Source: Coriobacteriales bacterium (lineage in GTDB: Bacteria > Actinomycetota > Coriobacteriia > Coriobacteriales > UBA8131). From it: 43,128 nucleotides of DNA. Under the pieces are notes generated by a model. It had not been told where the DNA came from. It made no database searches and worked only from the letters and a program-made list of their open reading frames with translations. Position numbers and translations under genes: made by a program. The stretch's first letter is position 1. Each line of letters starts with the position of its first letter. Positions 1 to 37,804 of this stretch are shown one piece after another. The stretch is from the NCBI GenBank assembly GCA_031263105.1, contig JAISGJ010000136.1, forward strand, positions 1 through 43,128, in the 5' to 3' direction.

Positions 1-82
<82 letters not shown>

Positions 83-744: not shown

Positions 745-2037
745 CTAGGCCCCCAGCAGGGCTGCGGGGACTACGGCTATTCCGTCTGGCCTTCGGTAGG
801 CCAAAGGGCCCGTCGTTATGATAAGGGCATCCGCCAGCCTGCCCCCCATGGCCTTCTTCAGCCACACCAGATGCCGCACGTCGGCATCGTCTACAAAGGG
901 AGCGGCCTTCACCTCGACGGCGATTGTCCTGCTGCCTTGGGTGAGGATGAAATCGATCTCACGCTCGCCCTTCTCCGTATGGAAATAGAACATCTCGGCT
1001 TCCAGAACCGCAGCATAGGCGCACAGGCTCTGATACAGCAACGCCTCGAACAGCCGCCCGACGATGTTGCCGTAACGTCCGTCAAAACGTGTCTCAGGCA
1101 GATGCTGGGAGGGCTGGCCCAGAAGGCGGTCGATGCTGATGTCGAGCAGCTGCACGGCAAAGGCAGGGTCTGCGAGATAATGTTTGGGCGTCCTTTTCAA
1201 CCGCGCATAATAGTTCTCGCCGTCAAGCCATGCAGGCAGCTCCTCAATGAGCCAGAGACGTTCAAGCGCCTCCCGATAGGCAATCGTTGTTCTGGTCGCC
1301 GGCTTCTCCGCCACGCCGGCAGTGGCGTTGTCGAGAATCAGGTTGTAGCCCGCAGTTGACGATATGGCCGCCGCATACGCCGTCAACCACCTCTTGAGTG
1401 CCTGAGGCTGCTTGATGTTGATGCCCTCTTGGACGAAGTCATGGGTCAGCAGGTTGTCGAGGTATGACGAGAGCACGGTCCTGCGGCGGCGCTCGTTGGC
1501 AATCCGCAGGGCCGGAAGCCCGGATAGCGCTATCTCGTTCAGGTAGTCGGAGAAGGCAATCGCGGTCTCGCCGCCGATGGGGGCCGAGCACGATTGCCCG
1601 GAATCGAAGAGGCTCGAGAGCGAGACGGTCTTTTTGCCCAATCCGCGCTCTTCGAGGGACAGGGGGAACATCCGTATCCGCACGATTCTTCCCGCACCCG
1701 AGTGGAGGTCGAGGTTCTTGGCGGTAATCGAGCCTGTAAAGAGGAAGCTGCTCCTCTGCCGGTTGCGATCCACGAGCCTGCGAACATGGTCCCAAACCCA
1801 AGGCAGCTTCTGCCATTCGTCAAGAAGGACAGGCTGCTTTGCCGCAACCAGCCTCTCGGCATCGTTTTCCAGAAGCAAGCGGTCGCGCTCACTGTCAAGC
1901 TCAAAGACCGTGTTGGCGATTCGCGAGGCGGACTCCGTCTTTCCGATGCCTTTGAGCCCGTCGACAGAGATGGCAGGCAGGTCGGTCAGCAGGTCTTCGA
2001 GGAAGGGCTCTATGAGCCTGATGTAGCGGCTATCCAT
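745..2037 (-). CDS. AAA ATPase of the AAA_14/DUF4143 type
   Basis: 430-aa ORF. It has an N-terminal P-loop-like GLKGIGKTE. The C-terminal REIDFIL...IAVEVK resembles the nuclease-like end of DUF4143 ATPases. Family assignment is from motif recall only. Confidence 0.7.
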   Translation of the reverse strand: MDSRYIRLIEPFLEDLLTDLPAISVDGLKGIGKTESASRIANTVFELDSERDRLLLENDAERLVAAKQPVLLDEWQKLPWVWDHVRRLVDRNRQRSSFLFTGSITAKNLDLHSGAGRIVRIRMFPLSLEERGLGKKTVSLSSLFDSGQSCSAPIGGETAIAFSDYLNEIALSGLPALRIANERRRRTVLSSYLDNLLTHDFVQEGINIKQPQALKRWLTAYAAAISSTAGYNLILDNATAGVAEKPATRTTIAYREALERLWLIEELPAWLDGENYYARLKRTPKHYLADPAFAVQLLDISIDRLLGQPSQHLPETRFDGRYGNIVGRLFEALLYQSLCAYAAVLEAEMFYFHTEKGEREIDFILTQGSRTIAVEVKAAPFVDDADVRHLVWLKKAMGGRLADALIITTGPLAYRRPDGIAVVPAALLGA

Positions 2038-2086
2038 ACGACCATTCTACGGAAACGCCTCGTTTTGTCAATGATTCTGGAGCCTG

Positions 2087-2125
2087 AATTACAACGATTC
2101 CGGAGTCCCAATTACAACGATTCCG
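2087..2125. repeat. two perfect 16-bp direct repeats (aattacaacgattccg) with a 23-bp period
   Basis: Copies at 2087-2102 and 2110-2125, in the intergenic region just upstream of the 745-2037 gene start. Confidence 0.85.
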
Positions 2126-2205
2126 ACATTTGCAGATGCCGCTGGGATGCACGTGTCAGGGAAACGGCAGGGAGGCTGCCCACGCCTTTGCCTCCTCTTT
2201 GTCTC

Positions 2206-3294
2206 TTAGGATTCCGAATGTCGGAGCAGGTACTCTTGCATGTAGGGGACGTCGAAGCTGATTATGCCGCGTCCCGTCGCCTTGACGACGCCGCTTTCGA
2301 TCAGTCGCAGGCGGTATTTCGCCGCGTAGCCGGAGCTGACCTGCAGGCGCGCGGCCATCTCGGCCATCGAAACGCTGCTCCCGCTCTCTGCCATGGCGAA
2401 GAGGAACGCCTGATCCTTCGCGGACAGCTCGCGCATGATGAGCGCATGGATGTTCCTGAACAGGTCCGCCTTTGAGTTGAGCAGGGCGCGCTCGACGTCG
2501 AGCCTCGACAGGGCCTCCCCTTTGCCTTTCCAGAGATAGTATCCGAGCAGCTGGATCAGGTAGGGGAACCCGCACGTCGCCTTTGCTGCCATAGCGGCCG
2601 TCTCCTCGGTTATCCCCACCTCTGCTTTCTCAAACACCCGTCTGAAGAGATCCTCTGTCAGCATTGCGTCCACACCGGAGAGGAACACCCGGTTCGAGCG
2701 ATGGAGGAACGTCAGGATTTTGTCGTTAAGAACACTGCTCACGGACTGGGGCAGGCCGGCCATAAGAAGCGCGACGTCGTGGTTCTCGCGCATGAGGTGC
2801 TGGTACGTGATCACGAGCTCGCGCATCTCGTCGTTGGCCCTGTGAACCTCGTCGACAAGAAAGACAATGCCCCTGCCGTCGCTTTTCAGCTCGTTTGCCA
2901 GCGAGGTCAGATGGTAACGGAACCCGTGCTCTGGCTCCTTGACGGACGTCGCCACGCCGACGCTGAAGCCCAGCGCCCCGGCATTCAGCCCTATTACGTG
3001 GCGCTTGGCGCTTGGCGAGTCCGCCTGCAGCTGGTCGAGAACAGACTGCAGGAAATGGGGACCCGCAGTCACATCGACAACAGCGAACCGCTTTGAGTCC
3101 AGCGTGTCGCGCACATCGGTAAGGAGCGCGGTCTTGCCCGATCCCCTGATTCCTGAAACCACGGTGACCCGGTTGGGGTCGTTGGGGTTGTCCAAGCCAC
3201 AGAGGAAGTCGCGAACGATGTAGTCACGACCGATAAAGTACTCAGGGCGTTTGCCGAACTGTGGATGAAACGGATTTGCTGCCAGCGCCTCCAT
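2206..3294 (-). CDS. ATP-binding protein (STAND/ORC-like AAA ATPase with C-terminal winged-helix-like region)
   Basis: 362-aa ORF. Walker A is GIRGSGKTALL and Walker B is IVFLVDEVH. The C-terminal segment LQVSSGYAAKYRLRLIESGVV looks like an HTH. Confidence 0.7.
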   Translation of the reverse strand: MEALAANPFHPQFGKRPEYFIGRDYIVRDFLCGLDNPNDPNRVTVVSGIRGSGKTALLTDVRDTLDSKRFAVVDVTAGPHFLQSVLDQLQADSPSAKRHVIGLNAGALGFSVGVATSVKEPEHGFRYHLTSLANELKSDGRGIVFLVDEVHRANDEMRELVITYQHLMRENHDVALLMAGLPQSVSSVLNDKILTFLHRSNRVFLSGVDAMLTEDLFRRVFEKAEVGITEETAAMAAKATCGFPYLIQLLGYYLWKGKGEALSRLDVERALLNSKADLFRNIHALIMRELSAKDQAFLFAMAESGSSVSMAEMAARLQVSSGYAAKYRLRLIESGVVKATGRGIISFDVPYMQEYLLRHSES

Positions 3295-3429: not shown

Positions 3430-5610
3430 CTAGTCCAGCTGCTGGCGGCGGACGAGGTCGGCGAAGAGGCCGCCTTGGGCCACGAGATCGTCGTAGCTGC
3501 CGTCCTCGGCGATGGCACCGTCCTCCAGCACGACGATGCGGTCGGCCTCCTTGATGGTGGAGAGGCGGTGGGCCACGATGATGCGGGTGCTCCTGAGCGC
3601 CGCGAGGGACTCGGAGACCTGCCGCTGCGTGATGTTGTCGAGTGCGCTCGTCGCCTCGTCGAACATGAGGATGCTCGGCTTCGACGCTATCGCGCGCGCT
3701 ATCATGATGCGCTGCTTCTGGCCGCCGGAAAGCCCGCCGGAGCCTTCGCTCACCATGGTCCGCATCCCCATGGGCATGGCGCGGATGTCGGCGGCGACCC
3801 CCGCCATCTCGGCGGCCTCCCAGGCCTCCTTGAGCGTGATCTGCGGCGCGGCGATGCCGATGTTGGAGAAGATGTCGCCCTGGAACAGGTCGCCGGTCTG
3901 CAGGACGACGCCGATGTTGCCCCTGAGAGACTTCAGGTCGAGCTTGCCCATGTCCTTCTCGTCATAGTATATCGCGCCTGCCTGGGGCGCCTCGAAGCCG
4001 AGGAGCAGCCGCAGCAGGGTGGACTTCCCGCAGCCGGTCTTGCCCACCAGGGCAAGGTACTCGCCCCGCCTGATGGTCAGATCCAGATTGTCGAGGACAG
4101 GCGGCGCGTCCTTCTCGTAGGCGAAGGAGACCCCCTCGATACGAATGGAGCCGCCCAGGGAGCGCAGTATCTCCTTGCTCTCCCCCAGCTCGGACGGCTC
4201 TTCGAGCAGGGGCTTTGCAATCTCAAGGATAGGCTTGATGTTCGCCATGGTGCCCACGATGCCGACGATCGGGATGAGTGCGCCGGAGACCTGCCCGAAG
4301 GCCGTCATGAAGGCGAAGTACTGCGGGACGTCCACGCCAGAGGTCGCCGCGACGAAATAGATGAACAGGAGACCTGCAATCCCCACCACCGCGTTCAGGG
4401 CCGGCATCAGCTTCAGCAGGACAGGCGGGTTGTAGTCGCAGCGCGCCTGCTCCTTGTAGATGTCCGCCCATTTTGCGAAGGCCCGCTTCTCGGCGCCGGA
4501 AAGCCGTAGCTTTTGGATGCCGGAGAACAGCGAGAACACGAGTGCGCTCAAGCGATTGGCAAGCGGCAGCCTCCTGCGCATGAGCGCCTGCTCCAGGCGC
4601 ACGCCCAAAAGCCCCACCGCGACCTGCAAGGCTATGGCGACGATGGCGGGCAGCGCAAGGCTTGGCGCTATGGAGAAGATCTGCGCCACATAGACCACGG
4701 AGAATATCGAGGCGAACGACGTCGTGAAGGCGACGGAGACGACGAGGGACGCGACCGAGCTCAGGTTGTTCATCCGGTTCGACAGGTCGCCTGCGCTGAA
4801 GCCCTTGAAGAAGACCGGCGGCATGTTGATGAGCTTGCCGAAGACGGCGCTCTCCATGACTATCTGCAGCTTGGTGGCGATGCGCGTCTCCGCGAGGCTT
4901 TTCAGGATGCCGAAGAGGATCGTCGAGAGCGAGACCCCCACCAGCAAAGCGGCAATCGCCCCCAGCTCCGAGAGCCGCCCCGAGGGGATCACGTGCGAGA
5001 AGATGAACTCGTTCGCCCAGGGCAGGGCAAGCCCCACGAGCGCCACGGCGACGGTCGCGAGCAGCACCAGGGAGAAGTCAGCCTTCTCGGTGCGCTCGAA
5101 CAGGAACCTGACAATGCCGCGCAAGTCGGTCGCGTCGTTGGGGAGCGGCCGGTAGAAGCAGATCGCGTCCCCTTCGAGCGCCTCTGCGGCCCGGGCGTTC
5201 ATCCTCACCTTCTGTCGACGCCCGTAATCGAAGAAGCGGTAGCCGCTCAACGTGGGGACGAGCGCCACATAGCCTCCCGCCTTGGTCTTGCACAGCATCG
5301 CCTCACTCGCGTTCTTCCACCACGCGCCCTCAAGCGACACATGGCGCCACATGACGCCGGACGGCCTGAGCAGGCGCTCGAGCCAGTCGTCGCCCTCCGT
5401 GTCGAAGTCGTCGCCCGCGTCGCGGGCGATGCCGTAGAAGCGGCATATCTCATCGACCGCGCTGCGCGTCCTTGTCTGCTCGCTCGACACGTACTCGGAG
5501 GCGACCTTCTCCCCCATGAGGACCGCCGCGAGGTCAAGGGTGGCATTGGTGAGCTGCGCGTCGTCGAAGGCAACCCGGTCGCGGATCTGTTTTTCCTGAA
5601 ATTGCACCAT
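3430..5610 (-). CDS. bacteriocin/RiPP-type ABC exporter, permease-ATPase without a recognisable C39 catalytic domain
   Basis: Start chosen at ATG 5610 (MVQFQEKQ...), 5 nt after the stop of the upstream gene. Walker A is GKTGCGKST, signature is LSGGQKQR and Walker B is ILMFDEATSALD. There are six or so TM segments. The N-terminal ~170 aa show no Cys/His peptidase motif. Confidence 0.85.
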   Translation of the reverse strand: MVQFQEKQIRDRVAFDDAQLTNATLDLAAVLMGEKVASEYVSSEQTRTRSAVDEICRFYGIARDAGDDFDTEGDDWLERLLRPSGVMWRHVSLEGAWWKNASEAMLCKTKAGGYVALVPTLSGYRFFDYGRRQKVRMNARAAEALEGDAICFYRPLPNDATDLRGIVRFLFERTEKADFSLVLLATVAVALVGLALPWANEFIFSHVIPSGRLSELGAIAALLVGVSLSTILFGILKSLAETRIATKLQIVMESAVFGKLINMPPVFFKGFSAGDLSNRMNNLSSVASLVVSVAFTTSFASIFSVVYVAQIFSIAPSLALPAIVAIALQVAVGLLGVRLEQALMRRRLPLANRLSALVFSLFSGIQKLRLSGAEKRAFAKWADIYKEQARCDYNPPVLLKLMPALNAVVGIAGLLFIYFVAATSGVDVPQYFAFMTAFGQVSGALIPIVGIVGTMANIKPILEIAKPLLEEPSELGESKEILRSLGGSIRIEGVSFAYEKDAPPVLDNLDLTIRRGEYLALVGKTGCGKSTLLRLLLGFEAPQAGAIYYDEKDMGKLDLKSLRGNIGVVLQTGDLFQGDIFSNIGIAAPQITLKEAWEAAEMAGVAADIRAMPMGMRTMVSEGSGGLSGGQKQRIMIARAIASKPSILMFDEATSALDNITQRQVSESLAALRSTRIIVAHRLSTIKEADRIVVLEDGAIAEDGSYDDLVAQGGLFADLVRRQQLD
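3696..3732. repeat. 37-bp exact direct repeat, copy 2 (inside the intact ABC gene)
   Basis: Identical to 702-738. It covers the LSGGQKQRIMIA codons of the 3430-5610 gene. Confidence 0.9.
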
Positions 5611-5615
5611 GTGGG

Positions 5616-7829
5616 TCACTCCATCGAGATCAGCTTCGTGTAGAGCCCTCCGGCGGCAAAGAGCTCCGCGTGTGTGCCGCGTTCCTGCACGCGGCCCTGG
5701 TCCAACACGATGATCTCGTCGGCGTCGCGTATCGTCGAGAGGCGGTGCGCCACGATCACGCAGGTGATGCCGCGCTCCCGTATGGAGCGGATGACCTCGT
5801 ATTCCGTCTTCGCGTCCAAGGCGCTCGTCGCCTCGTCCAAGATGAGCAGGGTGGGGTCCTGGGCCAGCGCGCACGCGATCTCTATCCTTTGGCGCTGCCC
5901 GCCCGAGAAGTTCTTGCCGCCCTCGGAGACCGTGTCGTTGTAGCCCCGTGGGCGCCGCACGATCTCCTCGTGTATCGCGGCGTCACGCGCCGCGAGGATG
6001 ACCTCGAAGTCCTCGATGCTCTTGTCCCACATCTTGATGTTCTCGGAGACGCTGTCCTCGAACATGATGATGTCCTGGTCGACCACGGCGATCGAGGAGG
6101 TGAAGGCGACCCGGGGAATCTCCGAGCGCGCCTTGCCGTCGTAGGTGATGCTGCCGCTCCACGGGTCGTACAGGCCGGAGATCAGCTTCGCCAGCGTGGA
6201 CTTCCCGCAGCCCGACGCCCCCACGAAGGCGACCTTGGAGCCGGGCGCAAGCCTCATGTCGAAGTCTTGGATGAGCGGCTCGGCCAGAGGCGAGTAGCCG
6301 AAGGTGACCCCTTCCATGCGGATCTCTCCGCGCAGCTTCTCGAGGCGCGTGTCATCTTCGAAGTCGGCGTTGGCTGCATCGACGTCCGCCTCGTAGTGCA
6401 TGACGTCCTCGATGCGCTCCATCGACACCCGCATCTCCTGGATGCCCTGCCCTGTGGTTATGAGGCTGTTCACAGGGTTGAGGAAGGCCTGCACGAACGA
6501 CTGGAAGGCGAGCAGCATGCCGGCGGTGAACTGCCCTGCCATGATGAGCGCCACGCCCAGCATCAGAATCAGGAGGTTGAGAAGGCTCTGCACGAGGCCG
6601 GGCAGCGAGCCGAGCGAGAAGTTGAGGGCGGCGGTCTTGGTGGCCGACTCGGTATACAAGGCGTACAGGCCGGCCCACTTCGCGAAGAACCCGTTCTCTG
6701 CGCCCACGGACTTGATGGTCTCCATCATGGAGATGCCGGTCAGCGTCATCCCCTGGAGCATGCTCTGGTTGCGCACCTGGACCCGTGATATGTCCACCCG
6801 CCTCTTTGAGATGACATACGCGAGCGCCACGTTCAGGAGCGTCGCCGCACAGGCGATGCAGGCGAGCAGGACGTTGTAGCGCATCATGACGGTCAGGTAG
6901 ATGACAAGGAGCGCCGCGTTTATGAGCACGGGGGCGACCCGCATGACGAAGGTCGCCGCTATCGCGTCGTTCGACGCCTGCCTGAGGGCGATGTCCCCCG
7001 CGAGCCTCTGGGAGAAGAAGCGCATGGGCAGCCTCAGCACATGCCAGATGAAGCCCGCGTTCGAGGATATGGCCAGCCTGCCCGCCACCTTGAACAGGTA
7101 GAACTGGTTGAGGGCGAGCGCGATGAACATGAACGCCCCGAAGGCGGCGAACACGCCCAGGAAGGGCATGAGCCAGGCCTGGTCCGCCTGCGCAAGTATC
7201 CGGTCGGTGAAGACGCGCATGAACGACGGCTGGACGATGCCGCCGACCGCGATGAGCGCGCTCATGAGCGCAAGCAGCACCAAGGCTGAGAAGGAGCCTG
7301 TCAGGCGCTCCCGCACAAAGCCCAGCACGCTGCGCGGCTTGCCTTCGGGCCTGAAGTCGGGCCCGGGGCTCAGTGTGATGCATATCCCGGAATAGGAGTG
7401 CTTGAACTTCTCGAACTCCAGGTCGTAACGGCCCCGTGCCGGGTCGCTGATGCAGGCTGTCGCGCCGCCTCGCTTGAAGCCCTCCAAGACGACGAAGTGG
7501 CTGAAGTTCCAGAAGAGGATGCAGGGAAAGGACGTCTTCGCCGCAAGCTCCTCCGCCTCGTACTTGAAGCCCTTGGCCTCGAGCCCATGGTTGCGCGCGG
7601 CCTTGAGGATGTTGCGGGCGGTGCTGCCGTCCCGCGAGACGCCGCAGTCCTCGCGCAGCTTTTCGAGGGGGATCCACTTGCGGTAGTGCGCGAGCACCAT
7701 GTCGAGGGAGGCGGCCCCGCACTCGGCGGCCTCCATCTGGAGGATCACGGGAACCTTTATGCGCCTTGCCTTTGCGCGCGTCGGCCGCATCTTCTGTTGT
7801 GCGTTCTCGTTGTCTTGTCCGGTCGTCAT
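5616..7829 (-). CDS. C39 peptidase-domain ABC exporter (double-glycine leader cleavage and export)
   Basis: The N-terminal LQMEAAECGAASLDMVLAHY supplies the catalytic Cys and FSHFVVLEG supplies the His. Walker A is GASGCGKST, signature is FSGGQRQR and Walker B is LLILDEATSALD. Confidence 0.9.
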   Translation of the reverse strand: MTTGQDNENAQQKMRPTRAKARRIKVPVILQMEAAECGAASLDMVLAHYRKWIPLEKLREDCGVSRDGSTARNILKAARNHGLEAKGFKYEAEELAAKTSFPCILFWNFSHFVVLEGFKRGGATACISDPARGRYDLEFEKFKHSYSGICITLSPGPDFRPEGKPRSVLGFVRERLTGSFSALVLLALMSALIAVGGIVQPSFMRVFTDRILAQADQAWLMPFLGVFAAFGAFMFIALALNQFYLFKVAGRLAISSNAGFIWHVLRLPMRFFSQRLAGDIALRQASNDAIAATFVMRVAPVLINAALLVIYLTVMMRYNVLLACIACAATLLNVALAYVISKRRVDISRVQVRNQSMLQGMTLTGISMMETIKSVGAENGFFAKWAGLYALYTESATKTAALNFSLGSLPGLVQSLLNLLILMLGVALIMAGQFTAGMLLAFQSFVQAFLNPVNSLITTGQGIQEMRVSMERIEDVMHYEADVDAANADFEDDTRLEKLRGEIRMEGVTFGYSPLAEPLIQDFDMRLAPGSKVAFVGASGCGKSTLAKLISGLYDPWSGSITYDGKARSEIPRVAFTSSIAVVDQDIIMFEDSVSENIKMWDKSIEDFEVILAARDAAIHEEIVRRPRGYNDTVSEGGKNFSGGQRQRIEIACALAQDPTLLILDEATSALDAKTEYEVIRSIRERGITCVIVAHRLSTIRDADEIIVLDQGRVQERGTHAELFAAGGLYTKLISME

Positions 7830-7857: not shown

Positions 7858-8403
7858 TCAGTTGAGCAAGAACGAGATGAGCTTTTCCTCGCGTGTGACG
7901 ATGGTGACCTCCGCGACGGTATCGCCGGTTCCTGTCGGGGCGCCGTCGGCCGCGACACCCCCAGGGGCAGCGTCTATCGTCACGCGGTACCCGAAGGGGC
8001 TCGTGGCCAGAAGGTAGGCCATCCACGCGTCGGCCTGCTCGTCGGCGACCTCCTCCTGCGAGAGCGGACGGGCGCCGACCTCGGCGACGGTGCCCTCGAG
8101 AACCGTGCCGTCGGGCATGGCCACGCGCGCATCGCAGCCGACAAGCGGCGTGGACGGCATCTGCTCGACCGGTATGTAGCTCACGACGCTTCCGTCCTCA
8201 TGGACAAGCCCCGTGGCGGAGAGGGTCTGGGAGAAGCTGCCCGTGAATCCCCAGATCAGGGCACCCGCCACGAACACCACGAGCGCGGCCACCGCAATCC
8301 AGGCGCTGGGCCGCACCACCCTCAGATAACCGTCGAGCCTCTCCGGCGAGAGCACCCGTTCGATGGCCTCCTCGCTGAACAGCTCCCGTTTCGTCTCAGC
8401 CAT
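7858..8403 (-). CDS. short HlyD/membrane-fusion-like secretion protein (181 aa)
   Basis: The N-terminus FSEEAIERVLSPERLDGYLRVVRPSAWIAVAALVVFVAGALIW resembles NHLP/Nif11-type bacteriocin secretion proteins. It has a single TM segment. It lacks the long coiled-coil portion of normal HlyD proteins. Confidence 0.6.
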   Translation of the reverse strand: MAETKRELFSEEAIERVLSPERLDGYLRVVRPSAWIAVAALVVFVAGALIWGFTGSFSQTLSATGLVHEDGSVVSYIPVEQMPSTPLVGCDARVAMPDGTVLEGTVAEVGARPLSQEEVADEQADAWMAYLLATSPFGYRVTIDAAPGGVAADGAPTGTGDTVAEVTIVTREEKLISFLLN

Positions 8404-8438: not shown

Positions 8439-8729
8439 CTACCTTTCGATGGAAGCCGGGCCAATCCCACTGTAAGGGTCAAGGTCTGCTCCGAAGCCGT
8501 AGGCGTGGCAGCCGCATCGTATTCCCTCGTCATTCGTGCCCTCGCCACCTGTTTCACAGGAACACAGCTTACTGCCATGGTCGTTTCCCTGTCCATCCCC
8601 GCCTAAGGCACAGATACAGACGCCGCCGCCCGCAACCTGCTCAAGTTCGTCTTCCGAGAGCTCCGCTGAGAGCTCCTCGATTTCTCCCATGAGCGCCTTG
8701 ACCTTCTCTACCTTCTGTGTGTCCGTCAA
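8439..8729 (-). CDS. RiPP precursor peptide P2 (GG leader, CIC/CSC/CGC core)
   Basis: TTG start (8727-8729) lies 7 nt after GGAGG. The leader is MTDTQKVEKVKALMGEIEELSAELSEDELEQVAGG. Confidence 0.8.
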   Translation of the reverse strand: MTDTQKVEKVKALMGEIEELSAELSEDELEQVAGGGVCICALGGDGQGNDHGSKLCSCETGGEGTNDEGIRCGCHAYGFGADLDPYSGIGPASIER

Positions 8730-8768
8730 GACGGTTCCTCCTTTTTGCCTACAGTCAATCGGTGCCTC

Positions 8769-8937
8769 CTAGGGAAGTGCCGATTAATTGCTTGTGCGCC
8801 AGATTGCGCCTGATCTGCCCCAGGTCTGTTCGGGGGCGCAACGCCACTACTTGCGGTAATGGCGTTGTGCTCACGGGCAGAGCTGGGGCAGATCAGGCGT
8901 GAGATGGTGCGCAATGAATTAATCGGTGCTTCCCTAG
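8769..8937. mobile_element. 169-bp MITE-like hairpin element flanked by CTAG
   Basis: The 32-nt imperfect terminal inverted repeats (8769-8800 and 8906-8937) are 26/32 complementary by hand count. An inner perfect 17-nt inverted repeat lies at 8807-8823 and 8883-8899. A related copy is at 21595-21660. Confidence 0.6.
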
Positions 8938-9203
8938 CACTTATCTATTCCCCAGCCGGCACCGGCACAGGCACATCGTGGATACATGCTGCTTTTGTCG
9001 GCGTCGGAGCGCCCGCTGCCAGAAAACACGCATGCACACGCGTGATCACCCCGGCCGTTCCCTTCTCCACCTCCAATCGCAGGGCAGACGCAGACGCCGC
9101 CGCCCGCGACCTGCTCAAGCTCGTCTTCCGAGAGCTCCGCTGAGAGCTCCTCGATTTCTCCCATGAGCGCCTTGGCCTTCTCTACCTTCTGTGTGTCCGT
9201 CAT
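8934..9203 (-). CDS. RiPP precursor peptide P3 (GG leader, CVC/CAC/CAC core plus C-terminal Cys)
   Basis: ATG start preceded by GGAGGG. The leader DNA is 104/108 identical to P2 by hand alignment. The stop codon TAG lies in the terminal CTAG of the hairpin element. Confidence 0.8.
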   Translation of the reverse strand: MTDTQKVEKAKALMGEIEELSAELSEDELEQVAGGGVCVCPAIGGGEGNGRGDHACACVFSGSGRSDADKSSMYPRCACAGAGWGIDKC

Positions 9204-9363
9204 GCTGGTTCCCTCCTTGCAGTTGATCGATTGAAACCTGTACTGCTGTTCCGCCCTGCCCCGGGCAATCCCAAGAGATCACCCGGAGCCTGCGGCACTG
9301 ACGCCCGCCGCCGCCTCGCGTATCCGCTCGGCGTATTATGTCTGACGACAGAGGAAATCGTTA

Positions 9364-9729
9364 TTATTTCCCCGCACCTAGCATTGAACAGCCGCAAACA
9401 GGGCTGAGCTCGCCGCCGCCGCCGCCGCCGCCGGCGGAACCGCACGTGCCGGCACCGTCGGCCCCGTCAGCTCCAAACCCGCCGCTGCTGCAGGCACAGC
9501 GCAGATTGCCCGGATTCGATAAAGACCCTGGGCTTGTGGTGCCCGCGCCAAAGGCAGCACAAAAACACTCGCCGCCCTGATCGGTCGCGCTGCCATAACC
9601 GCTCGCCGCGCAGTCGCACGCACCGCCGCCCGCGACCTGTTCAAGCTCGTCTTCCGAGAGCTCCTCCGAAAGCTCCTCGACCTCCTCGGCGAGGGCTTCG
9701 ACCTTCTCCACCTTCTCTGTGTCTGTCAT
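9364..9729 (-). CDS. RiPP precursor peptide P4 (GG leader, CDC/CFC/CAC core with long Gly-rich tail)
   Basis: Start placed at the internal ATG 9729 (MTDTEKVEK...), which matches all paralogs. The 23 upstream codons of the track ORF have no paralog support. Confidence 0.75.
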   Translation of the reverse strand: MTDTEKVEKVEALAEEVEELSEELSEDELEQVAGGGACDCAASGYGSATDQGGECFCAAFGAGTTSPGSLSNPGNLRCACSSGGFGADGADGAGTCGSAGGGGGGGELSPVCGCSMLGAGK

Positions 9730-9842
9730 GACATTCCTTTCTCTCATATCTTTCGACCCCTGAAGACCGAGATCATCATCAAGCTCACCCGTGAGCACCG
9801 CTCACAACTTCACATGGTCCAAGAAGAAGCATCCGAGGGATT

Positions 9843-10211
9843 TCACAAAATAGAAAGCATGGTGCACGCGGTGCCGCCGCCACCGCCGGAACCCGCGTTG
9901 CCGCCAGCAGCGGCAATCATACCGGGGAGGGCGCACCCAGGGCCGGCAGTTTCGCCCCCGGACCCGCTCCCTGAGCAGGCGCAACGCAGGTGGTCTGGAT
10001 CCGATGAATCGGCGACTGTGGTGCCTGCGCCAAGGGCGGAGCAGGTGCATCGGCCGCCCTTGTCGGTCGCGCCGCCGTAGCCGCTCCCTGTGCAGTTGCA
10101 CGCGGCACCGCCCGCGACCTGTTCAAGCTCGTCTTCCGAGAGCTCCTCCGAAAGCTTCTCGACCTCCTCGGCGAGGGCTTCGACCTTCTCGGCCTTCTCT
10201 GTGTCTGTCAT
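9843..10211 (-). CDS. RiPP precursor peptide P5 (GG leader, CNC/CTC/CAC core with Gly-rich tail)
   Basis: The ATG overlaps the rSAM stop (ATGA at 10208-10211). Its SD AAGGAGG lies inside the rSAM 3' end. Confidence 0.8.
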   Translation of the reverse strand: MTDTEKAEKVEALAEEVEKLSEELSEDELEQVAGGAACNCTGSGYGGATDKGGRCTCSALGAGTTVADSSDPDHLRCACSGSGSGGETAGPGCALPGMIAAAGGNAGSGGGGGTACTMLSIL

Positions 10212-11710
10212 GGTGATGCCTCCTTTTCTTTTGAAATCAACCGATGGGAGGACGGGTCGGGTGACCCATCCTCTTTTTGCCTCCTTTTGCTCGCTCCTTC
10301 GTCGCGCTTCACTGACGCCGCATCAATACCTCCCGCCGCTGTCGCAGTCTCATATATCCGCTCGGCAAAGCCGCCGCGAAGTATCAGGCAGAAGCCCTCG
10401 TCGGGCGCCATGAGGTCGTCGGGGTGGTCCACCAGCGCAGAGGCGCGGCAGCCGGCGCCGCAGACGAGGCGCTGCTCGCACGTTTGACAGCGCTCGTTGT
10501 GCGCAAGGTAGTCCTTGAGGCGCGTGTCGATGAAGCCCATGTAGTACGAGTCGCTCAGGCACTGCGCGAGGCTCATGTCCTCGAGTCCCGGGAAGTCCTG
10601 TTGTATGTCCATACCGGAAAGCGCCATGCAGGGAAGCACCTTGCCGTCGGCGGCGATATACATGACCTGACGCGCGTGGCCGCATACGCACTGGGCCATA
10701 AGGGCCGTCTCGTCGCCCCCGCAGGACTTCTGCGCGGGTATCTGAAACGCAGGGTCGCCCCTCCTCGCGTAGAAGGCCCCGCCGAGCATGACGTTCATCG
10801 GCTGGCCGTCCTCGTAGTAGTGCGGGATGTAGTCGAGATAGGCCTCGAGCGTCTCCTCGAGGGACAGGTCGTCGTCGCCCGCGTTCTGCGCCCAGGCGCC
10901 CGTCTTGCCCGCAGGGTTCGTCTTGATGTGGGCGACGCCGAGCCCCGCGAGGTGGTTGATGCTCTCGCGCAGCGTGCCCTTGTTGCGCTGGTGCAAGGTG
11001 AGCTCCGCCCCCAACGGGAAGCCGCGCTCATGGCAGAGCGCGAGCGCACGGTTCACCTCCCGCTCCGCACCCTCGACGCCGCGCAGCCAGTCGTGGAAGC
11101 CCACGCCGTCGAAGCTCATGTTGAACTCCGGGCGGATGCCGCGCGCATCGAAGCCGTCGAGCAGCTCCGGCGTGACGAGCTTGCCGTTGGAGTAGACGGT
11201 CGTGATGCGGATGCGGTAGGCGAGCAGACGGTCGATGATCTGCCAGAAGTCCTTCCTGACCAGTGGCTCGCCCCCGGTGATCGAGACCTCGCGGATGCCG
11301 CAGCCCGCTATCTCGTCGGCTATGCTCAGGCACTTCTCCGTGGAGAGCTGGCCGTACTTGGCGTCCGGTGCCGACATGTAGCAGTGGCGGCAGCGGTAGT
11401 TGCAGTGCCCCGTGATCGACCAGTGGGCCGTGCGCATGAAGCGGGAGTCGAAGCGGCGGTATCTCTGCCATGCGTCCAGCCTGCTGCCCGGGGCGCACTC
11501 GCTGACGATCCCGCTCCCAGCAAGCTTCTCGACGGTGGGGTGCAGCCGTTCGGGGATGTGCTCCATGCCTATCTCGCCGTCGCAGCAGCTCAGGGCCTCG
11601 AAGGCATCGGCATCCAAGAATGACACGCCGTAGCTTGGGGTGAACAGCGCGAAGGGGAGCCTCTGCCAGCCCCTCAGCGCATAGCCCTTGTTCAGGATGT
11701 AGCTTGTCAC
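10208..11710 (-). CDS. radical SAM / SPASM-domain peptide maturase with N-terminal RRE-like domain
   Basis: CNYRCRHC matches CX3CX2C and GGEPL is present. The C-terminal Cys clusters CVCGH...VLPC and CQTCEQRLVCGAGC are SPASM-like. The N-terminal ~95 aa precede the rSAM core. The GTG start overlaps the P6 stop. Confidence 0.85.
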   Translation of the reverse strand: MTSYILNKGYALRGWQRLPFALFTPSYGVSFLDADAFEALSCCDGEIGMEHIPERLHPTVEKLAGSGIVSECAPGSRLDAWQRYRRFDSRFMRTAHWSITGHCNYRCRHCYMSAPDAKYGQLSTEKCLSIADEIAGCGIREVSITGGEPLVRKDFWQIIDRLLAYRIRITTVYSNGKLVTPELLDGFDARGIRPEFNMSFDGVGFHDWLRGVEGAEREVNRALALCHERGFPLGAELTLHQRNKGTLRESINHLAGLGVAHIKTNPAGKTGAWAQNAGDDDLSLEETLEAYLDYIPHYYEDGQPMNVMLGGAFYARRGDPAFQIPAQKSCGGDETALMAQCVCGHARQVMYIAADGKVLPCMALSGMDIQQDFPGLEDMSLAQCLSDSYYMGFIDTRLKDYLAHNERCQTCEQRLVCGAGCRASALVDHPDDLMAPDEGFCLILRGGFAERIYETATAAGGIDAASVKRDEGASKRRQKEDGSPDPSSHRLISKEKEASP

Positions 11711-11917: not shown

Positions 11918-14719
11918 CTAGCTGGCGTACTGGGCGTCGAGCTCGCGGGCGAGCAGGGCGTTCTTCTGGTTCTTCACGATGCGCTCAAGGTGCGTGAGGA
12001 GGGTCGGCTCTATGTCGGGGTGGGCCGCCATCCAGGCATCGGTGCGATCGACGGTTGCCTGGCCGGCCAGGCCGAAGGGGTAGAAGTTCTGAACGAGCGT
12101 GGTGGAGATCGCGTTGCTGTTGTTCTCGATGACGGACTGCAGGCGCTCGAAGTAGACCTCGTCCAAGCCCGCATACACCTCGCTGGCATCGGGGTAACGC
12201 ACATACGGGTTGTAGAAGTACCAGGTCGCGTCCGCCTCTGCAAAGCTCATCTCCTTGCCGGAGAAGTAGGTATCGAGCAGGGAGCGCCTGACCTCGGTGG
12301 TGGGGAAGCGCAGCCTGGAGCGCTCGCTGAGAGTCACGATCTCGGGCTCGTCCGCGCCCAGCTCCGCAATCAGCGCGTCGATGTCCTCCGCACCGGCCTG
12401 GCCCGCCGCAATGAGCGTGTTGAGCGCACCGAAGCGGATGTAGGGCGCGCGCCACACGGTGGTGCCAGCCATGACCTCGCGCAGGAACGCGATGCTCTTC
12501 TCGGAATCGGAACGGAGCGCACATACCAGGACGGGCATGATGGTGTCCTCGCCCCATGCGTCGAAGACCCCCGCATTCAAGGCGTCCACTATCGCATCGG
12601 CGACGGCGCCGGTGCTGCGCCCGAGGTTCTCGTCGGCCGTCAGCGAGTACAGGTCTGCGCCCATGGCCGCACCGTCGAGCGACTTGTCGCTGAGCACTGC
12701 GATCTCGTAAGGGGAGCGCGTGGCCGCAAGGACGTCTGCAATGACGCCAAGGGTGCGCGAGGCAGGGTATTTGAGGTCGCGCGTCATCTGCATCAGGTCA
12801 AAGACGGCGAGGGTCCTTACGAAGGGATCGTCCAGCGCCCCGATGTGCTGCTCGAGCGTCGCAAGGCTCACCTCGTCGAAGACGACCTTGGAGTAGTCCG
12901 CGCCCGCATGGTCTATAAGGATGAGGTCGGGGCGCTCGGCGCCGGCTACGGCGGGCACCTCGGTCTCGTCACCCGAGACGAGCACCTCGTGCGCGTCACG
13001 CAGCACGAGCCGCTCGGCACCGCCCTCGCCCACCAGGTCGTAGAAGCCTATCTCCAGCTTGTGCGTGCGCAAAAGCGGCGTGTTGGCGCCGCCCGTGTAC
13101 TCCTCTGCGGCCTGGGTCACCACAAGCCGCTCGATGCGGCCCTGCTCGTCCGTCTCCACCACGGGGGCGAGCGTGTTGACGCCGGTGGCGGTGAGCCACT
13201 CCTCGGACCAGCCCGCCATGTCTATGTCCGCATAGGGCTGGAAGGCGGCGATGAAGTCGCTGAGCCTGGCGTTGCCCTCCGCATGCTGTGCGAAGTAGTC
13301 GTGGATGCCGCTCCTGAAGCTCTCCTCGCCCACGAGCGCATGGAGCTGCGTGAGCGCCATGCTCCCCTTGGCATAGGTGATGTTGTCCACGTTGGCATCC
13401 GACTGCTCGATGGTGATGTCCGAGTCGGACGCGATGGCATGGGTCGCGGGGCCCTGGTCCTGGTCAACGGCGGCAAGCCGCGTCAGGTCCTGCCCGTAGA
13501 TGAGGTAGTCGTCGTTGCCCGTAAGGGCCGCGACGGCCCTAAGCGAGATGAACTCGGCAAAGGACTCGTTGAGCCACAGGTCGTTCCACCATTCCATGGT
13601 CACAAGGTTGCCGAACCACTGGTGCGCAAGTTCGTGCAGGATGGTGATGTCGTTATACATGCGCTCGAAGAGCGAGTCGGCATACACCTCATGGAGCGTG
13701 ACGGCACCGACGTTCTCCATGCCGCCCCAGAGGAAGTTCGGCACGTAGATCTGGTCGTACTTCTCGTAGGGGAACTCCGTGCCGAACGCCTGCTCGTAGT
13801 ACGCGATCCCGGCCTTGGTGAGGTCGAACCACGCGTCGAAGTCCGCCCCCTCGGCCACGGAGGGGCGCGCATAGAAGCCGAGGGGCACCTGGCGACCGTC
13901 CGAGGCCTCGTAGGTGGACGTGACCTGGACGTAGTCGCCCGCTATGAGGGAGCTGAGGTAGGTGCTCATGAGCGGCGAGGGCGCGAACTCCCAGTGCCTC
14001 GTGTCGCCGTTCTCCGTGGGCTCACCGACCGGATCGGTGGCGGTGACGACCGTCCACTGCTTCGGCGCGTCCACGCTGAGGGTGAAGTGCGCCTTGAGGT
14101 TGGGCTGGTCGAAGCACGCGAAGACGCTCTGGGCGTAGGCAGACTCGTGCTGCGTGTAGATGAAGGTCTGGCCCTCGTCCTCGGGAGGGGCCTCGCGCAT
14201 GATGCCGACGCCGGATACGGAGTAGCCGTTCGTGGCGGTGAGGCGCAGCGTATTGGCGGCCTCAAGGCCCGTGAGCAGGATGCGCCCGTGCTCCTTGTCG
14301 TAGACCGCTGCGGGGTCGAGTTCCGTGCCGTTGAGCTCGATGCTCCCGATGTCCGCAAGGCGCGCGTCGATGAAGCTCTCCGCGCCCGGCTCGGCGCTGA
14401 AGCTCACCTCCTCGGTGAGGGCATAGGTCTCGCTCGTGCCATCCAGCTCGAACGCGAGCGCGTAGTCGATGTCCGAGAGCGCGGATGCCCGCGCGAGCAT
14501 CTCCTCATAGGTGACGTAGGCCGTCTGCACGCCCTCGGACGTGCCTGTCGCGTCCGACGTCGCCGCAGGGGCTGTGTCCGCAGGGGCACCGCCCGCAGGG
14601 GCGGCGTCCTGTGCGCCCGGTTGCCCGCTCGAACACGCCGTCGCACCGACGGTGCCGAGCGCCAGCAGCAGCGCCAGCAGCAGCGCCAGCAGTTTACGCG
14701 AGAATGTCGTAGTCGTCAT
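11918..14719 (-). CDS. M1-family zinc aminopeptidase (PepN-like), probable lipoprotein
   Basis: It has the GGMEN exopeptidase motif and HELAHQWFGN...WLNESFAEF (HEXXH-18-E). The N-terminal signal ends in the lipobox-like ATAC. The stop is 19 nt from the P6 start. Confidence 0.85.
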   Translation of the reverse strand: MTTTTFSRKLLALLLALLLALGTVGATACSSGQPGAQDAAPAGGAPADTAPAATSDATGTSEGVQTAYVTYEEMLARASALSDIDYALAFELDGTSETYALTEEVSFSAEPGAESFIDARLADIGSIELNGTELDPAAVYDKEHGRILLTGLEAANTLRLTATNGYSVSGVGIMREAPPEDEGQTFIYTQHESAYAQSVFACFDQPNLKAHFTLSVDAPKQWTVVTATDPVGEPTENGDTRHWEFAPSPLMSTYLSSLIAGDYVQVTSTYEASDGRQVPLGFYARPSVAEGADFDAWFDLTKAGIAYYEQAFGTEFPYEKYDQIYVPNFLWGGMENVGAVTLHEVYADSLFERMYNDITILHELAHQWFGNLVTMEWWNDLWLNESFAEFISLRAVAALTGNDDYLIYGQDLTRLAAVDQDQGPATHAIASDSDITIEQSDANVDNITYAKGSMALTQLHALVGEESFRSGIHDYFAQHAEGNARLSDFIAAFQPYADIDMAGWSEEWLTATGVNTLAPVVETDEQGRIERLVVTQAAEEYTGGANTPLLRTHKLEIGFYDLVGEGGAERLVLRDAHEVLVSGDETEVPAVAGAERPDLILIDHAGADYSKVVFDEVSLATLEQHIGALDDPFVRTLAVFDLMQMTRDLKYPASRTLGVIADVLAATRSPYEIAVLSDKSLDGAAMGADLYSLTADENLGRSTGAVADAIVDALNAGVFDAWGEDTIMPVLVCALRSDSEKSIAFLREVMAGTTVWRAPYIRFGALNTLIAAGQAGAEDIDALIAELGADEPEIVTLSERSRLRFPTTEVRRSLLDTYFSGKEMSFAEADATWYFYNPYVRYPDASEVYAGLDEVYFERLQSVIENNSNAISTTLVQNFYPFGLAGQATVDRTDAWMAAHPDIEPTLLTHLERIVKNQKNALLARELDAQYAS

Positions 14720-33888: not shown

Positions 33889-33999
33889 TTTTAGTTGTCA
33901 TAGGTGCCGTTTCTGCACGTGTCTCAGCCTCATGCTCGCTCGGGATATGCTATGATGCAGGCAGTGCTTTTTACATCGTCTCGAACGGGGAAGGCCGCT

Positions 34000-36234
34000 A
34001 TGCGGTACACGTTTGTGAAACAGCATGATATAACGGATTGCGCCGCCGCCTGCCTTGCGATGGTCTGCCTGCACTACAAGAAGGAGACCACCATCACGAG
34101 GCTGCGCGACATGATGGGCACGGACATCAAGGGGACCAACCTCATAGGCCTCGCCAAGTGCGCCGACGAGCTTGGCTTCGTGTCCCAGGCCGTCAAGGTC
34201 GACCGGCAGGGCTTCTTGAGCGAATACACGCGTCCCTGCATCGCAAACGTCCACACGCGGGAGGGCCTCAGCCACTTCGTCGTGGTCTTCAAGGTCGGCA
34301 GGGAGCACGTGGTCGTCGGCGACCCCGCGAAGGACCTGGAGCGCGTGACGGTCAACGACTTCTACCGGACCTTCACAGGCAACCTGCTGCTCCTGAAGCC
34401 TGACAACCGCTTCCAGAAGGGCCGCGTCAAGGGCGAGAAGGTCTTCGGCCGCTTCGTGAAGCTGCTGCTCCCGCAGAAGAAGCTGTTCGTCTTCTCAATC
34501 CTCGCCTCCCTCATCATGACGGTGCTCGGCATAGCCTCCTCGCTCTTCAACAAGATAGTGATGGACGAGATACTGCCCTACGAGCTCAGGGGCCTCCTCC
34601 TGAGCGTGCTGCTCATATTCGCGGCCGTCGCCCTCACGCAGGTGCTGATACAGTTCGTGCGCAGCTGGATGATGCTGTTTTTGTCCCAGAGGATAGACAT
34701 ACCGCTCATGCTCGGGTACTTCGAGCACATCTACAAGCTTCCGATGCGCTTCTTCGCCACGAGGAAGACGGGCGACATCATCACGCGCTTCTCCGACGCC
34801 TTCACCATCAAGGACATCTTCACGGGCATCGCGCTCACGCTCATCATGGACGTGGCCATGGCGCTCATCACCGGGGTGATACTGTTTCGGATGAACGCTA
34901 CGCTGTTCGGCATCATCGCCCTGCTCACGCTCGTGAGCGTCATCCTGGTCCTCTGCTTCCGGCTGCCGTACAAGAAGATAAACTTGGAGCAGATGCAGCA
35001 GGCCTCCATCCTCAACTCGGAGATCATCGAGGGGCTCAACGGGGTCGAGACCATCAAGGGCAACGCCAACGAGGAGGCCGAGCTCGAGAGCATCGAGCGC
35101 GAGTACATCAAGTCTTTGCGCATAGCCTTCAGGGAGGGGATGCTCTCCAACACGCAGGGCGCCATCTCGGGGGCCGTCGGGGCGATCGGGAACCTCGTGC
35201 TCATGTACTTTGGCGTGCTCCAGGTGATAGACAACGAGATCACGCTGGGGACGCTGATGGCCTTCATGACGCTGGCGGGCTTCTTCATGGACCCCGTGCA
35301 GCGCCTGGTCGGCCTGCAGCTGCAGATACAAGAGGCGAACATATCCATGAAGCGCGTCTCGGAGATCCTCGACTACGAGCAGGAGCAGGAGGGCGCGGAG
35401 CGCCGCCAGCCCTTCGAGGGCGCGGCGGGCGACGTCGCGTTCAAGGGCGTGACCTTCCGCTACGGCAACCGCAAGCCGGTGCTGCACGACGTCTCCTTCT
35501 CGATACCGAGGGGCCAGAAGCTCGCCCTCGTCGGCGCGAGCGGCAGCGGCAAGTCCACCGTCGCGAAGCTGCTCCTGAAGTACTACGAACCGGAGGCGGG
35601 CTCCGTCACCATCGACGGCGTGGACATCGAGGAGTACAGCAACGACTCGCTGCGCAGGGGCATATCCTACGTGCCCCAGCGCATAGAGCTGTTCTCGAAG
35701 AGCGTCTACGACAACATCCGCGTGACGAAAATGGACTCGACGCTGGAGGAGGTGAAGGAGGCCGCCAAGGCAGCCGACGCCCACGACTTCATACGCAGGC
35801 TGCCCCTGCAGTACCACACCTTCCTAGAGGAGTCCGGCAGCGGGCTCTCCGGCGGGGAGCAGCAGCGCATCGCCATCGCCCGCGCCTTCCTGAAGGAGAA
35901 CGACCTCTACGTCTTGGACGAGAGCACGAGCAACCTGGACTTCGGCACGGAGCGCGTCGTCTTCGACATGATCTACAACAGGCTCAAGGGCAAGACCATG
36001 CTCATCATCGCCCACCGGCTCTCCACGGTGAGGAACTGCGACCGGATAGTCGTGCTGGACAAGGGCGAGGTCGTCGAGCAGGGCAGCCACGAGGAGCTGC
36101 TCGCAAGGGAGGGGGTGTACTGGCGGCTCTGGGAGATGCAGCAAGGGAACGTCGTGGCAGGGGAGAAGAACGGTGATGGGGACGGTAAGGAGATTCCGGA
36201 AAGTCTAGATGATGACACAATCAGCTATCTGTAG
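34000..36234 (+). CDS. C39 peptidase-domain ABC bacteriocin exporter (ComA/LcnC-like)
   Basis: Start placed at ATG 34000. MRYTFVKQHDITDCAAACLAMVCLHY aligns with the N-termini of ComA/LcnC-type exporters. LSHFVVVFK supplies the His. Walker A is GASGSGKST and the signature is LSGGEQQR. Confidence 0.9.
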   Translation: MRYTFVKQHDITDCAAACLAMVCLHYKKETTITRLRDMMGTDIKGTNLIGLAKCADELGFVSQAVKVDRQGFLSEYTRPCIANVHTREGLSHFVVVFKVGREHVVVGDPAKDLERVTVNDFYRTFTGNLLLLKPDNRFQKGRVKGEKVFGRFVKLLLPQKKLFVFSILASLIMTVLGIASSLFNKIVMDEILPYELRGLLLSVLLIFAAVALTQVLIQFVRSWMMLFLSQRIDIPLMLGYFEHIYKLPMRFFATRKTGDIITRFSDAFTIKDIFTGIALTLIMDVAMALITGVILFRMNATLFGIIALLTLVSVILVLCFRLPYKKINLEQMQQASILNSEIIEGLNGVETIKGNANEEAELESIEREYIKSLRIAFREGMLSNTQGAISGAVGAIGNLVLMYFGVLQVIDNEITLGTLMAFMTLAGFFMDPVQRLVGLQLQIQEANISMKRVSEILDYEQEQEGAERRQPFEGAAGDVAFKGVTFRYGNRKPVLHDVSFSIPRGQKLALVGASGSGKSTVAKLLLKYYEPEAGSVTIDGVDIEEYSNDSLRRGISYVPQRIELFSKSVYDNIRVTKMDSTLEEVKEAAKAADAHDFIRRLPLQYHTFLEESGSGLSGGEQQRIAIARAFLKENDLYVLDESTSNLDFGTERVVFDMIYNRLKGKTMLIIAHRLSTVRNCDRIVVLDKGEVVEQGSHEELLAREGVYWRLWEMQQGNVVAGEKNGDGDGKEIPESLDDDTISYL

Positions 36235-36830: not shown

Positions 36831-36861
36831 GATATGGCATAGCCCAAGGAGGTGCTGATTA

Positions 36862-37737: not shown

Positions 37738-37804
37738 GGTAGCGGCGCGTTGAGTCGATGCGTCGACATGGCATTGCTGTAAGAGAGCGATACTGAGACT
37801 GAAA

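Follow-up and report, generated by a model that had tools for sequence, protein, structure and literature searches.

What is made by a group of small, cysteine-rich genes that stand beside a radical S-adenosylmethionine (rSAM) enzyme of the SPASM type? The question is raised by contig JAISGJ010000136.1 (assembly GCA_031263105.1) of a Coriobacteriales bacterium, the whole 43,128 nt of which is referred to here as the window. An earlier note on this DNA had described five open reading frames (ORFs), P1 to P5, with a common leader ending in a double glycine (GG) and cores built around three Cys-x-Cys (CxC) pairs. These were found as described, the leader being 35 residues long and ending in Q[VI]AGG. 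We suggest, with moderate confidence and by analogy with characterised systems, that P1-P5 are precursors of an rSAM-modified RiPP (a ribosomally made, post-translationally modified peptide), in which two nested Cys-Gly alpha-thioethers would be formed per motif, with leader cleavage and export to follow.

The conserved unit of the cores is larger than the cysteine pair. Gly is found at +6 and +8 of every CxC in P1-P5 (16/16 sites, against a Gly background of 26%), and the unit is therefore C-x-C-x3-G-x-G. In the five-peptide alignment, invariance within the core is confined to columns C38, C40, G44, G46, C55, C57, G61, G63, R76, C77, C79, G83 and G85. Each core contains 6-9 Cys. The motif occurs three times in P1, P2, P3 and P5 and four times in P4, where the CGC of the poly-Gly tail begins a complete fourth copy, CGCSMLGAG; of the Cys that stand alone, two (in P4 and P5) are followed by Gly at +4. 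The spacing given in the earlier note was recounted and is correct in all five peptides: the first CxC begins at core residue 3, the first linker has 14-15 residues and the second 13-23, Arg precedes the third CxC, and the extra Cys of P3, P4 and P5 lie where they had been placed. The pairs had also been proposed as the determinants of modification or function. The invariant Cys columns are in keeping with this, but they are only half of the motif, and the Gly-x-Gly partner had been missed. Similarly, linkers and x residues had been thought to vary freely; the cores are only 25-51% identical in pairwise comparison (leaders 74-94%), but two Gly per repeat and the Arg are fixed. A conserved leader joined to a diversified core is typical of multi-precursor RiPP loci.

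The motif recurs far beyond this contig. An exhaustive hidden Markov model search with the precursors through 1.84 billion cluster representatives (50% identity, E <= 1e-3) returned 288 of them, and exactly three C-x-C-x3-G-x-G motifs were present in 123 of the best 150. Relatives with just one motif also occur. P1-P5 are paralogues and not independent of one another; it is because the CxC architecture recurs in 288 cluster representatives that it can be taken as beyond chance. Of the three-motif members, 152/169 (90%) have their first Cys at core residue 3 and 121/170 have a first linker of 14-15 residues, while the second linker extends from 13 to 34 residues across the 170, with Arg at -1 of the third pair in 95% of the family. 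The CxC spacing is thus conserved in homologues from other genomes. Most family members bear a long Nif11-type leader (PF07862) and a minority, including those in the window, a short one. A reciprocal look-up placed two of the family peptides beside Radical_SAM genes of ~470 aa, with four or five precursors each.

The enzyme gives a matching picture. A search of contigs, with one genome per species, found rSAM orthologues at 36-79% identity in 76 loci (labelled L and a number below), the hosts of which are Clostridia (Oscillospiraceae, Lachnospiraceae, Christensenellaceae), Coriobacteriia, Synergistaceae, Selenomonadales and Spirochaetes, gut and rumen being the main sources. Triple-CxC peptides with a GG leader lie directly downstream of the rSAM gene in 17/76 loci according to a simple screen, with ten such peptides in L011, and the cassette of short protein, two ABC exporter subunits, rSAM and precursors is kept in ~25 loci. 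The closest relative, L080, has an rSAM enzyme that is 82% identical, the same gene order and three precursors resembling P4 and P5. Among cultured strains, Collinsella tanakaei An791 (L020) carries a triple-motif precursor.

At this scale the Gly offsets persist. In cores that were picked without regard to Gly (90 CxC sites), the frequency of Gly was 0.90 at +6 and 1.00 at +8. The stoichiometry of Cys and Gly was analysed in 99 distinct cores located beside rSAM homologues, including lower-identity homologues with single-Cys precursors. Here, Gly follows the second Cys of a pair at +4 (0.97) and +6 (0.87) and the first at +6 (0.88) and +8 (0.87), and solo Cys show enrichment of Gly only at +4 (0.47 versus a background of 0.19). 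These are the values to be expected from a basic Cys(i)-Gly(i+4) unit, with a Cys at i-2 pairing with the next Gly outward. The position-specific composition of 473 repeats leaves as fixed residues only Gly +6, Gly +8 and the Arg at -1 of repeat 3. In the mutual information computed across the repeat, i/i+2 pairs and phylogeny dominate. The few degenerate repeats in triple-motif peptides retain their partner residues, so that covariation of Cys loss with Gly loss was uninformative.

These numbers bear on the possibility that the enzyme links the CxC Cys to residues other than Gly, either at beta or gamma carbons of the linkers, as in ranthipeptides, or at non-Gly alpha carbons, the Gly being only turn formers. 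Asp, Asn, Thr and Ser, typical acceptors in ranthionine formation, are indeed abundant in the linkers, and in a few family members Gly +8 is substituted while both Cys are retained. However, no conserved non-Gly acceptor (Asp, Glu, Asn or Thr) was found at a fixed spacing from Cys in the 473 repeats, and family-wide the Arg at -1 of repeat 3 is the sole non-Gly residue at a constant distance from Cys, whereas the 1:1 ratio of Cys to Gly with i/i+2 alternation is that of proven Cys-Gly sactipeptides. Acceptors other than Gly are unlikely in our estimation. The earlier note had offered the CxC Cys as donors for thioethers of either the sactionine or the ranthionine type. The ranthionine type is disfavoured by the invariant Gly-x-Gly, and the sactionine type favoured, because Gly has no beta or gamma carbon; a role as thioether donors for the SPASM enzyme is supported by the translational coupling of GG-leader precursors to rSAM, a pairing that recurs across genomes.

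There are precedents for linking alternating Cys to alternating Gly. In StsA of Streptomyces sparsogenes (CxCxCx4GxGxG), the rSAM/SPASM enzyme StsB installs three nested Cys-to-Gly S-C-alpha thioethers in a hairpin, Cys2-Gly15, Cys4-Gly13 and Cys6-Gly11, and a thioether to Gly is possible only at C-alpha (Precord et al. 2023, PMC10288494). For BlaA (CxCx4GxG), the nested linkages Cys13-Gly22 and Cys15-Gly20 were proven by nuclear magnetic resonance (He et al. 2022, as described in PMC10288494). StsA and BlaA are the only characterised peptides we found in which alternating Cys are followed by an equal number of alternating Gly, and the same alternation, at a ratio of 1:1, is seen at all CxC sites of P1-P5. 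The precursors in the window likewise adjoin an rSAM/SPASM enzyme, for which the same chemistry is proposed. In contrast to StsA, which has three Cys and three Gly in one module, each module in the window has two of each, and there are three or four modules in tandem per peptide. BlaA as described in that source has the same two-staple unit, CxC...GxG with two Cys and two Gly, as is proposed for P1-P5, but in a single module with a loop of four residues. Other differences from StsA/StsB are the leader, which is of the double-glycine or Nif11 type and is accompanied by a C39-ABC exporter, and the hosts, which are anaerobic gut and rumen bacteria. Unlike the sts system with its StsC, the window has no discrete RRE (RiPP recognition element) protein, and an RRE-like domain is apparently fused to the rSAM enzyme.

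A different comparison is offered by the gut-anaerobe sactipeptide Ruminococcin C of Ruminococcus gnavus (RumC1-5). Its locus contains several paralogous precursors, maturation is by rSAM/SPASM enzymes (PMC10849128), and there is more than one hairpin per peptide, namely a double hairpin with four thioethers. Unlike P1-P5, it has its Cys outside CxC pairs and forms large hairpins, not 9-residue modules, and its leader, processing and enzyme clade differ from those of the window system. Its acceptors are Asn, Ala, Arg and Lys, not Gly.

The enzyme has intact cluster-binding motifs. CX3CX2C is found at C103/C107/C110, and there are seven SPASM Cys (C343-X12-G-X4-C361, C408-X2-C411-X5-C417-X3-C421 and C441), all of these being invariant in 43 homologues; in Pfam the protein scores 69.9 bits for Radical_SAM and 19.5 for SPASM, the latter just under the cutoff of 21.5. 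Its fold matches that of RiPP rSAM maturases bearing an RRE: the AlphaFold2 model (pLDDT, the predicted local distance difference test score, of 89) has SuiB, SkfB, PqqE and CteB as top Foldseek matches, together with TigE and anSME. In sequence comparison with solved structures, the sactisynthase SkfB came first, and PqqE, SuiB and CteB were the next nearest. ChlB, another Foldseek match, was considered as a characterised relative of the ScmE family and rejected, since it is a cyclophane synthase. Residues 1-95 modelled alone (pLDDT 84) retrieved SuiB, TruD, TbiB1, TigE and LynD first, all of which bear an RRE, and this suggests an RRE at the N-terminus of the modelled protein.

Over its full length the enzyme resembles the MftC/PqqE-type SPASM group more than it does classical sactisynthases, as is also true of StsB. 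In a mapping anchored on motifs rather than on structural superposition, and covering this enzyme, StsB and CteB but not MftC, its residues Y111, T145, I/V172 and S199 match the first four catalytic-proximity positions of StsB (Y113, T147, I174, S199) at nearly identical spacing. The ranthisynthase CteB differs at 3/4 of these positions (F112, F152, T186), and its S210 is also Ser. The StsB-like residues give weak support to sactionine chemistry, and they speak against ranthionine-like linkage to non-Gly acceptors. For the latter it may be said that the enzyme is detectably related to CteB and to the PapB family, CteB being a distant sequence match (E = 3.7e-07 with a family profile); the PapB model NF047865, however, gives only 46.5 bits against a cutoff of 340.

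The SPASM enzymes are functionally diverse, and this lends some weight to the idea that the rSAM enzyme carries out another reaction, such as epimerisation, formation of a C-C or C-O crosslink or another transformation of Cys, and that the CxC pairs then form disulfides or bind metal, as would a secreted peptide of the metallothionein or cluster-binding kind; a metal-binding scaffold had also been considered in the earlier note. The ScmE, NirJ, MftC and PqqE models, for enzymes that are uncharacterised or make no thioethers, are all among the best NCBIfam matches and score like that of StsB. CxC is a classical metal-binding motif. In addition, the anionic, Gly-rich cores are unlike typical bacteriocins. 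Against this, the conserved residues in hundreds of cores are only Cys, Gly and one Arg, with no conserved aromatic residue for a cyclophane and no conserved hydrophobic one for epimerisation, and Gly cannot be epimerised. Metal binding does not explain the strict Cys-Gly spacing and leaves the conserved rSAM partner without explanation, and the 1:1 ratio of Cys to Gly is also present in single-Cys relatives. We regard such alternatives as rather unlikely.

The organization of the locus ties the precursors to the enzyme and to an exporter. The minus-strand gene order is P6, rSAM, P5, P4, P3, P2, a short HlyD-like protein, a C39-ABC exporter and a second ABC exporter (Table 1). The stop codon of P6, which lies directly upstream of rSAM, abuts the rSAM start, and the rSAM stop codon overlaps the ATG of P5 (ATGA); translational coupling is therefore indicated. 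A Shine-Dalgarno sequence is located 6-9 nt upstream of the start in each of P1-P5. The listed ORF of P4 extends to 9798, and the ATG paralogous to those of the other precursors, with a ribosome-binding site, is at 9729. The common leader of P1-P5 reads MTDT[QE]K.EK..AL..E...LS..LSEDELEQ[VI]AGG. Against the Nif11 model (TIGR03798/PF07862) the window leaders reach 16-17 bits (cutoff 32.3), with no Pfam match; TIGR04149, which describes GG-leader rSAM-modified RiPPs of the Bacteroidetes type, gives 22.9 for P5 and 18.9 for P4 (cutoff 25), mostly over the leader end.

P6 passes the NCBIfam double-glycine leader model bacteriocin_sig (17.3 versus a cutoff of 15.7). It and 13 others in the family search share the leader and have no motif, and P6 may be exported alongside the others as an unmodified bacteriocin, or it may resemble a pheromone. 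These peptides are also an argument for a simpler scheme in which P1-P5 are exported unmodified as class II double-glycine bacteriocins, possibly disulfide-bonded, while the rSAM enzyme acts on another substrate: the leader type is common to Cys-free peptides that presumably need no rSAM enzyme, and for class II bacteriocins a C39 exporter is enough by itself. Yet precursors and rSAM co-occur in many phyla, with start and stop codons overlapping, the precursors that neighbour the rSAM family always have Cys with Gly at +4, and the cassette has no other conserved gene that could plausibly encode a substrate. This scheme is very improbable.

The exporter pair resembles that of NHLP/Nif11-leader precursors with NHLM export (Haft et al. 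2010), with which the locus also shares many diversified precursors and conserved leaders, most family members carrying the Pfam Nif11 leader. In contrast to that type, the window leaders are short and fall below the Nif11 cutoff, and the HlyD-type component is truncated to 181 aa. This protein has a match to TIGR03794 (NHLP HlyD-type) of 42 bits (cutoff 156), which is confined to the N-terminus (residues 16-76), and equally short versions are kept in related loci. Of the NHLP-type export set, only ABC subunit 1 is above its cutoff. It contains Peptidase_C39, ABC_membrane and ABC_tran domains, and its C39 domain, residues 1-160 of the protein, is predicted to cleave the leader after GG. The start of subunit 2 is the ATG at 5610, with synteny in ~25 related loci. 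Classification as NHLP/Nif11 leaves the chemistry of the core undefined.

For the thioether reading, the following maturation is proposed by analogy. The RRE-like N-terminal domain of the rSAM enzyme would bind the conserved acidic leader, and the enzyme would abstract the C-alpha hydrogen of both Gly in each C-x-C-x3-G-x-G module, so that each Gly becomes bonded to the sulfur of a Cys through an S-to-C-alpha thioether (sactionine). Linkage would be nested, with an inner Cys(i+2)-Gly(i+6) bond, a Cys-to-Gly+4 ring, and an outer Cys(i)-Gly(i+8) bond, each module thus forming a doubly stapled mini-hairpin, with three in tandem and four in P4. The C39 domain of the exporter would then remove the leader after Gly-Gly, and both ABC subunits and the short membrane protein would export the product, which is probably a bacteriocin-like or signalling peptide. 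Six thioethers would result in a mass loss of 12 Da, and the eight of P4 in a loss of 16 Da; predicted masses are given in Table 1. Disulfides would instead cause a loss of 2 Da per Cys pair, which is reversible by reductants.

Several points weigh against this reading. The chemistry is drawn from analogy, and the conservation of Gly could be purely structural, reflecting turns. The loop between the inner Cys and Gly has three residues, versus four in StsA and BlaA, and the substitutions of Gly +8 mentioned above leave both Cys in place. Mutual information for the cross-strand pair 1-7 (z = 5.8, not corrected for phylogeny) gives the hairpin register only modest support and was not relied on. 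The cores of P1-P5 are neutral to anionic (net charge 0 to -6), which is atypical of membrane-active bacteriocins. No NCBIfam family is matched above cutoff by the enzyme: the best is the uncharacterised ScmE (97 bits, cutoff 400), and the StsB model NF045574 gives 89.4 bits in two stretches (cutoff 625), so that the enzyme is not of the StsB family. Since it fails the StsB model and its nearest family is the uncharacterised ScmE, enzyme similarity does not single out sactionine formation. By comparison, BlaB reportedly lies close to StsB (E = 1e-68), as far as the description of BlaA/BlaB available to us goes. Finally, the Foldseek scores for residues 1-95 are weak (E-values 0.07-1, TM-scores 0.43-0.58), and in Pfam this region has no match even at E <= 1, PqqD included.

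The product might also be of a kind not yet described. Thioethers could connect different modules, resulting in a knotted or ladder-like fold with six bridges, or Cys and Gly could undergo chemistry other than sactionine formation; the role might be other than that of a bacteriocin, e.g., metal or cluster binding or a signal, with P6-type peptides as a co-exported pheromone or partner. We consider this improbable.

Table 1. Genes of the precursor cluster and of a second bacteriocin locus in the window. Masses (Da) are monoisotopic and refer to GG-cleaved cores; modified masses and thioether numbers are predictions.
Feature	Coordinates	Strand	Description	Unmodified mass	Modified mass	Thioethers
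Precursor P1	230..517	+	35-aa GG leader and 60-aa core; motifs at nt 341-367, 392-418, 470-496	5993.707	5981.613	6
Precursor P2	8439..8729	-	TTG start; 61-aa core; motifs at nt 8592-8618, 8538-8564, 8490-8516	6045.582	6033.488	6
Precursor P3	8934..9203	-	54-aa core; motifs at nt 9066-9092, 9012-9038, 8949-8975; C-terminal Cys	5265.228	5253.134	6
Precursor P4	9364..9729	-	86-aa core; four motifs at nt 9592-9618, 9541-9567, 9472-9498, 9370-9396; one solo Cys	7562.050	7545.925	8
Precursor P5	9843..10211	-	87-aa core; motifs at nt 10074-10100, 10023-10049, 9957-9983; two solo Cys	7741.319	7729.225	6
Precursor-like P6	11707..11898	-	Same GG leader; 28-aa Cys-free core LPFELNAPVVYLEDGTVKDSRLPLEAIL			
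Radical SAM/SPASM peptide maturase	10208..11710	-	500 aa; RRE-like N-terminal domain			
Short accessory protein	7858..8403	-	181 aa; single transmembrane segment, visible in the translation			
ABC exporter subunit 1	5616..7829	-	N-terminal C39 peptidase domain; TIGR03796 NHLM_micro_ABC1, 896.4 bits (cutoff 853.3)			
ABC exporter subunit 2	3430..5610	-	Permease/ATPase without peptidase domain; TIGR03797 NHLM_micro_ABC2, 685.8 bits (just below cutoff 709.4)			
Second locus, C39-ABC exporter	33904-36234	+				
Second locus, GG-leader peptide	36444-36830	+	...MTEDEMTYVEGG, then a Gly/Ala-rich hydrophobic core			
Second locus, two small membrane proteins	37013-37327, 37372-37737	+	Immunity-like in appearance			
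Second locus, HlyD-like protein	38536-39660	+				

Around the precursor genes there are signs of duplication. The 22 nt that precede the P2 start, ribosome-binding site included, are nearly identical to those preceding P1, which points to duplication of whole precursor units. Between P3 and P2 (window 8730-8933) there is a 12-nt inverted repeat, CTGATCTGCCCC ... GGGGCAGATCAG, the arms of which enclose a loop of ~60 nt. P1 stands immediately beside a poly-C run of ~80 nt at window 1-82, which has most likely arisen as an artefact of sequencing or assembly at the contig end. The placement and orientation of P1 relative to the cluster thus need some caution.

A scan of 7.8-12.1 kb for terminators and promoters gave nothing convincing, and Rfam and tRNA scans of the window returned no match. 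Two AAA-type ATPase genes (window 745-3294, minus strand) lie between ABC subunit 2 and P1, one with AAA_14 and DUF4143 and the other AAA_16/STAND-like with a possible C-terminal winged helix-turn-helix. They were rejected as cluster members, being present in 0/76 related loci, and the pair looks like an insertion into the cluster. Directly upstream of P6 is a gene for an M1-family aminopeptidase with an N-terminal lipoprotein-like signal (window 11918-14719, minus strand). It was likewise rejected (0/76 related loci beside rSAM) and is probably unrelated to the cluster, but it may trim exported peptides. The second, unrelated double-glycine bacteriocin locus (window 33904-39660, plus strand) is situated in a low-GC island of 47-51%, compared with ~65%.

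Lower-identity rSAM orthologues (39-48%) are found in L021, L027, L029, L030, L032, L034, L036, L054, L062 and L064, from Lachnospiraceae, Butyrivibrio, Selenomonadales and Anaerovibrio. Their precursors have a Nif11 leader, are located at about 10001-11400, mostly just upstream of rSAM, and show other Cys/Gly patterns, for example the cores GCIFGGSNPTGCLFSGSY and ...CAFVGVGFG...CIFIGGSDGPIAG. The Gly four residues after Cys is kept in all of them. From this pattern, Cys(i)-Gly(i+4) substrates may form a broader superfamily. In some related loci a LytTR response regulator, an ECF-type sigma factor or both are encoded near the precursor and rSAM genes (L077, 780-1532 and 11100-11618; L079, 6726-7229), hinting at dedicated regulation there.

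In NCBIfam and Pfam scans of the precursors and the enzyme, the only curated models above cutoff concern the ABC1 exporter, the generic Radical_SAM domain and the GG leader of P6; the precursors themselves have weak leader-type matches only, and no model captures the core. Public annotation of the family is limited to 'radical SAM protein' and 'predicted ribosomally synthesized peptide with nif11-like leader'. A literature search returned no description of CxCx3GxG or of the family, the supplementary datasets of large rSAM-RiPP mining studies (including the six new sactipeptide groups of PMC10288494) being outside its reach, and the family may already be listed in such datasets as an uncharacterised predicted sactipeptide group. 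By analogy with StsA and BlaA, it would be a Cys-Gly sactionine-type RiPP that is modular, arranged as a triple tandem and built on a tighter ring.

If this is true, a large family of at least 288 clusters at 50% identity, from anaerobes of gut, rumen and termite gut, has gone without a name in public annotation. Its peptides would carry six Cys-to-Gly thioethers as three tandem 9-residue mini-hairpins, whereas the sactipeptides compared here have one hairpin (StsA, BlaA) or two (RumC1). The logic of Cys-Gly sactionines would thereby come to include a tighter ring, i to i+4, as well as a staple that is modular and can be repeated. Such a module would be attractive for peptide engineering, because almost any residue is tolerated at the five x positions and any linker between modules. 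With one enzyme serving up to ten diversified precursors per locus, these loci would amount to a natural combinatorial library.

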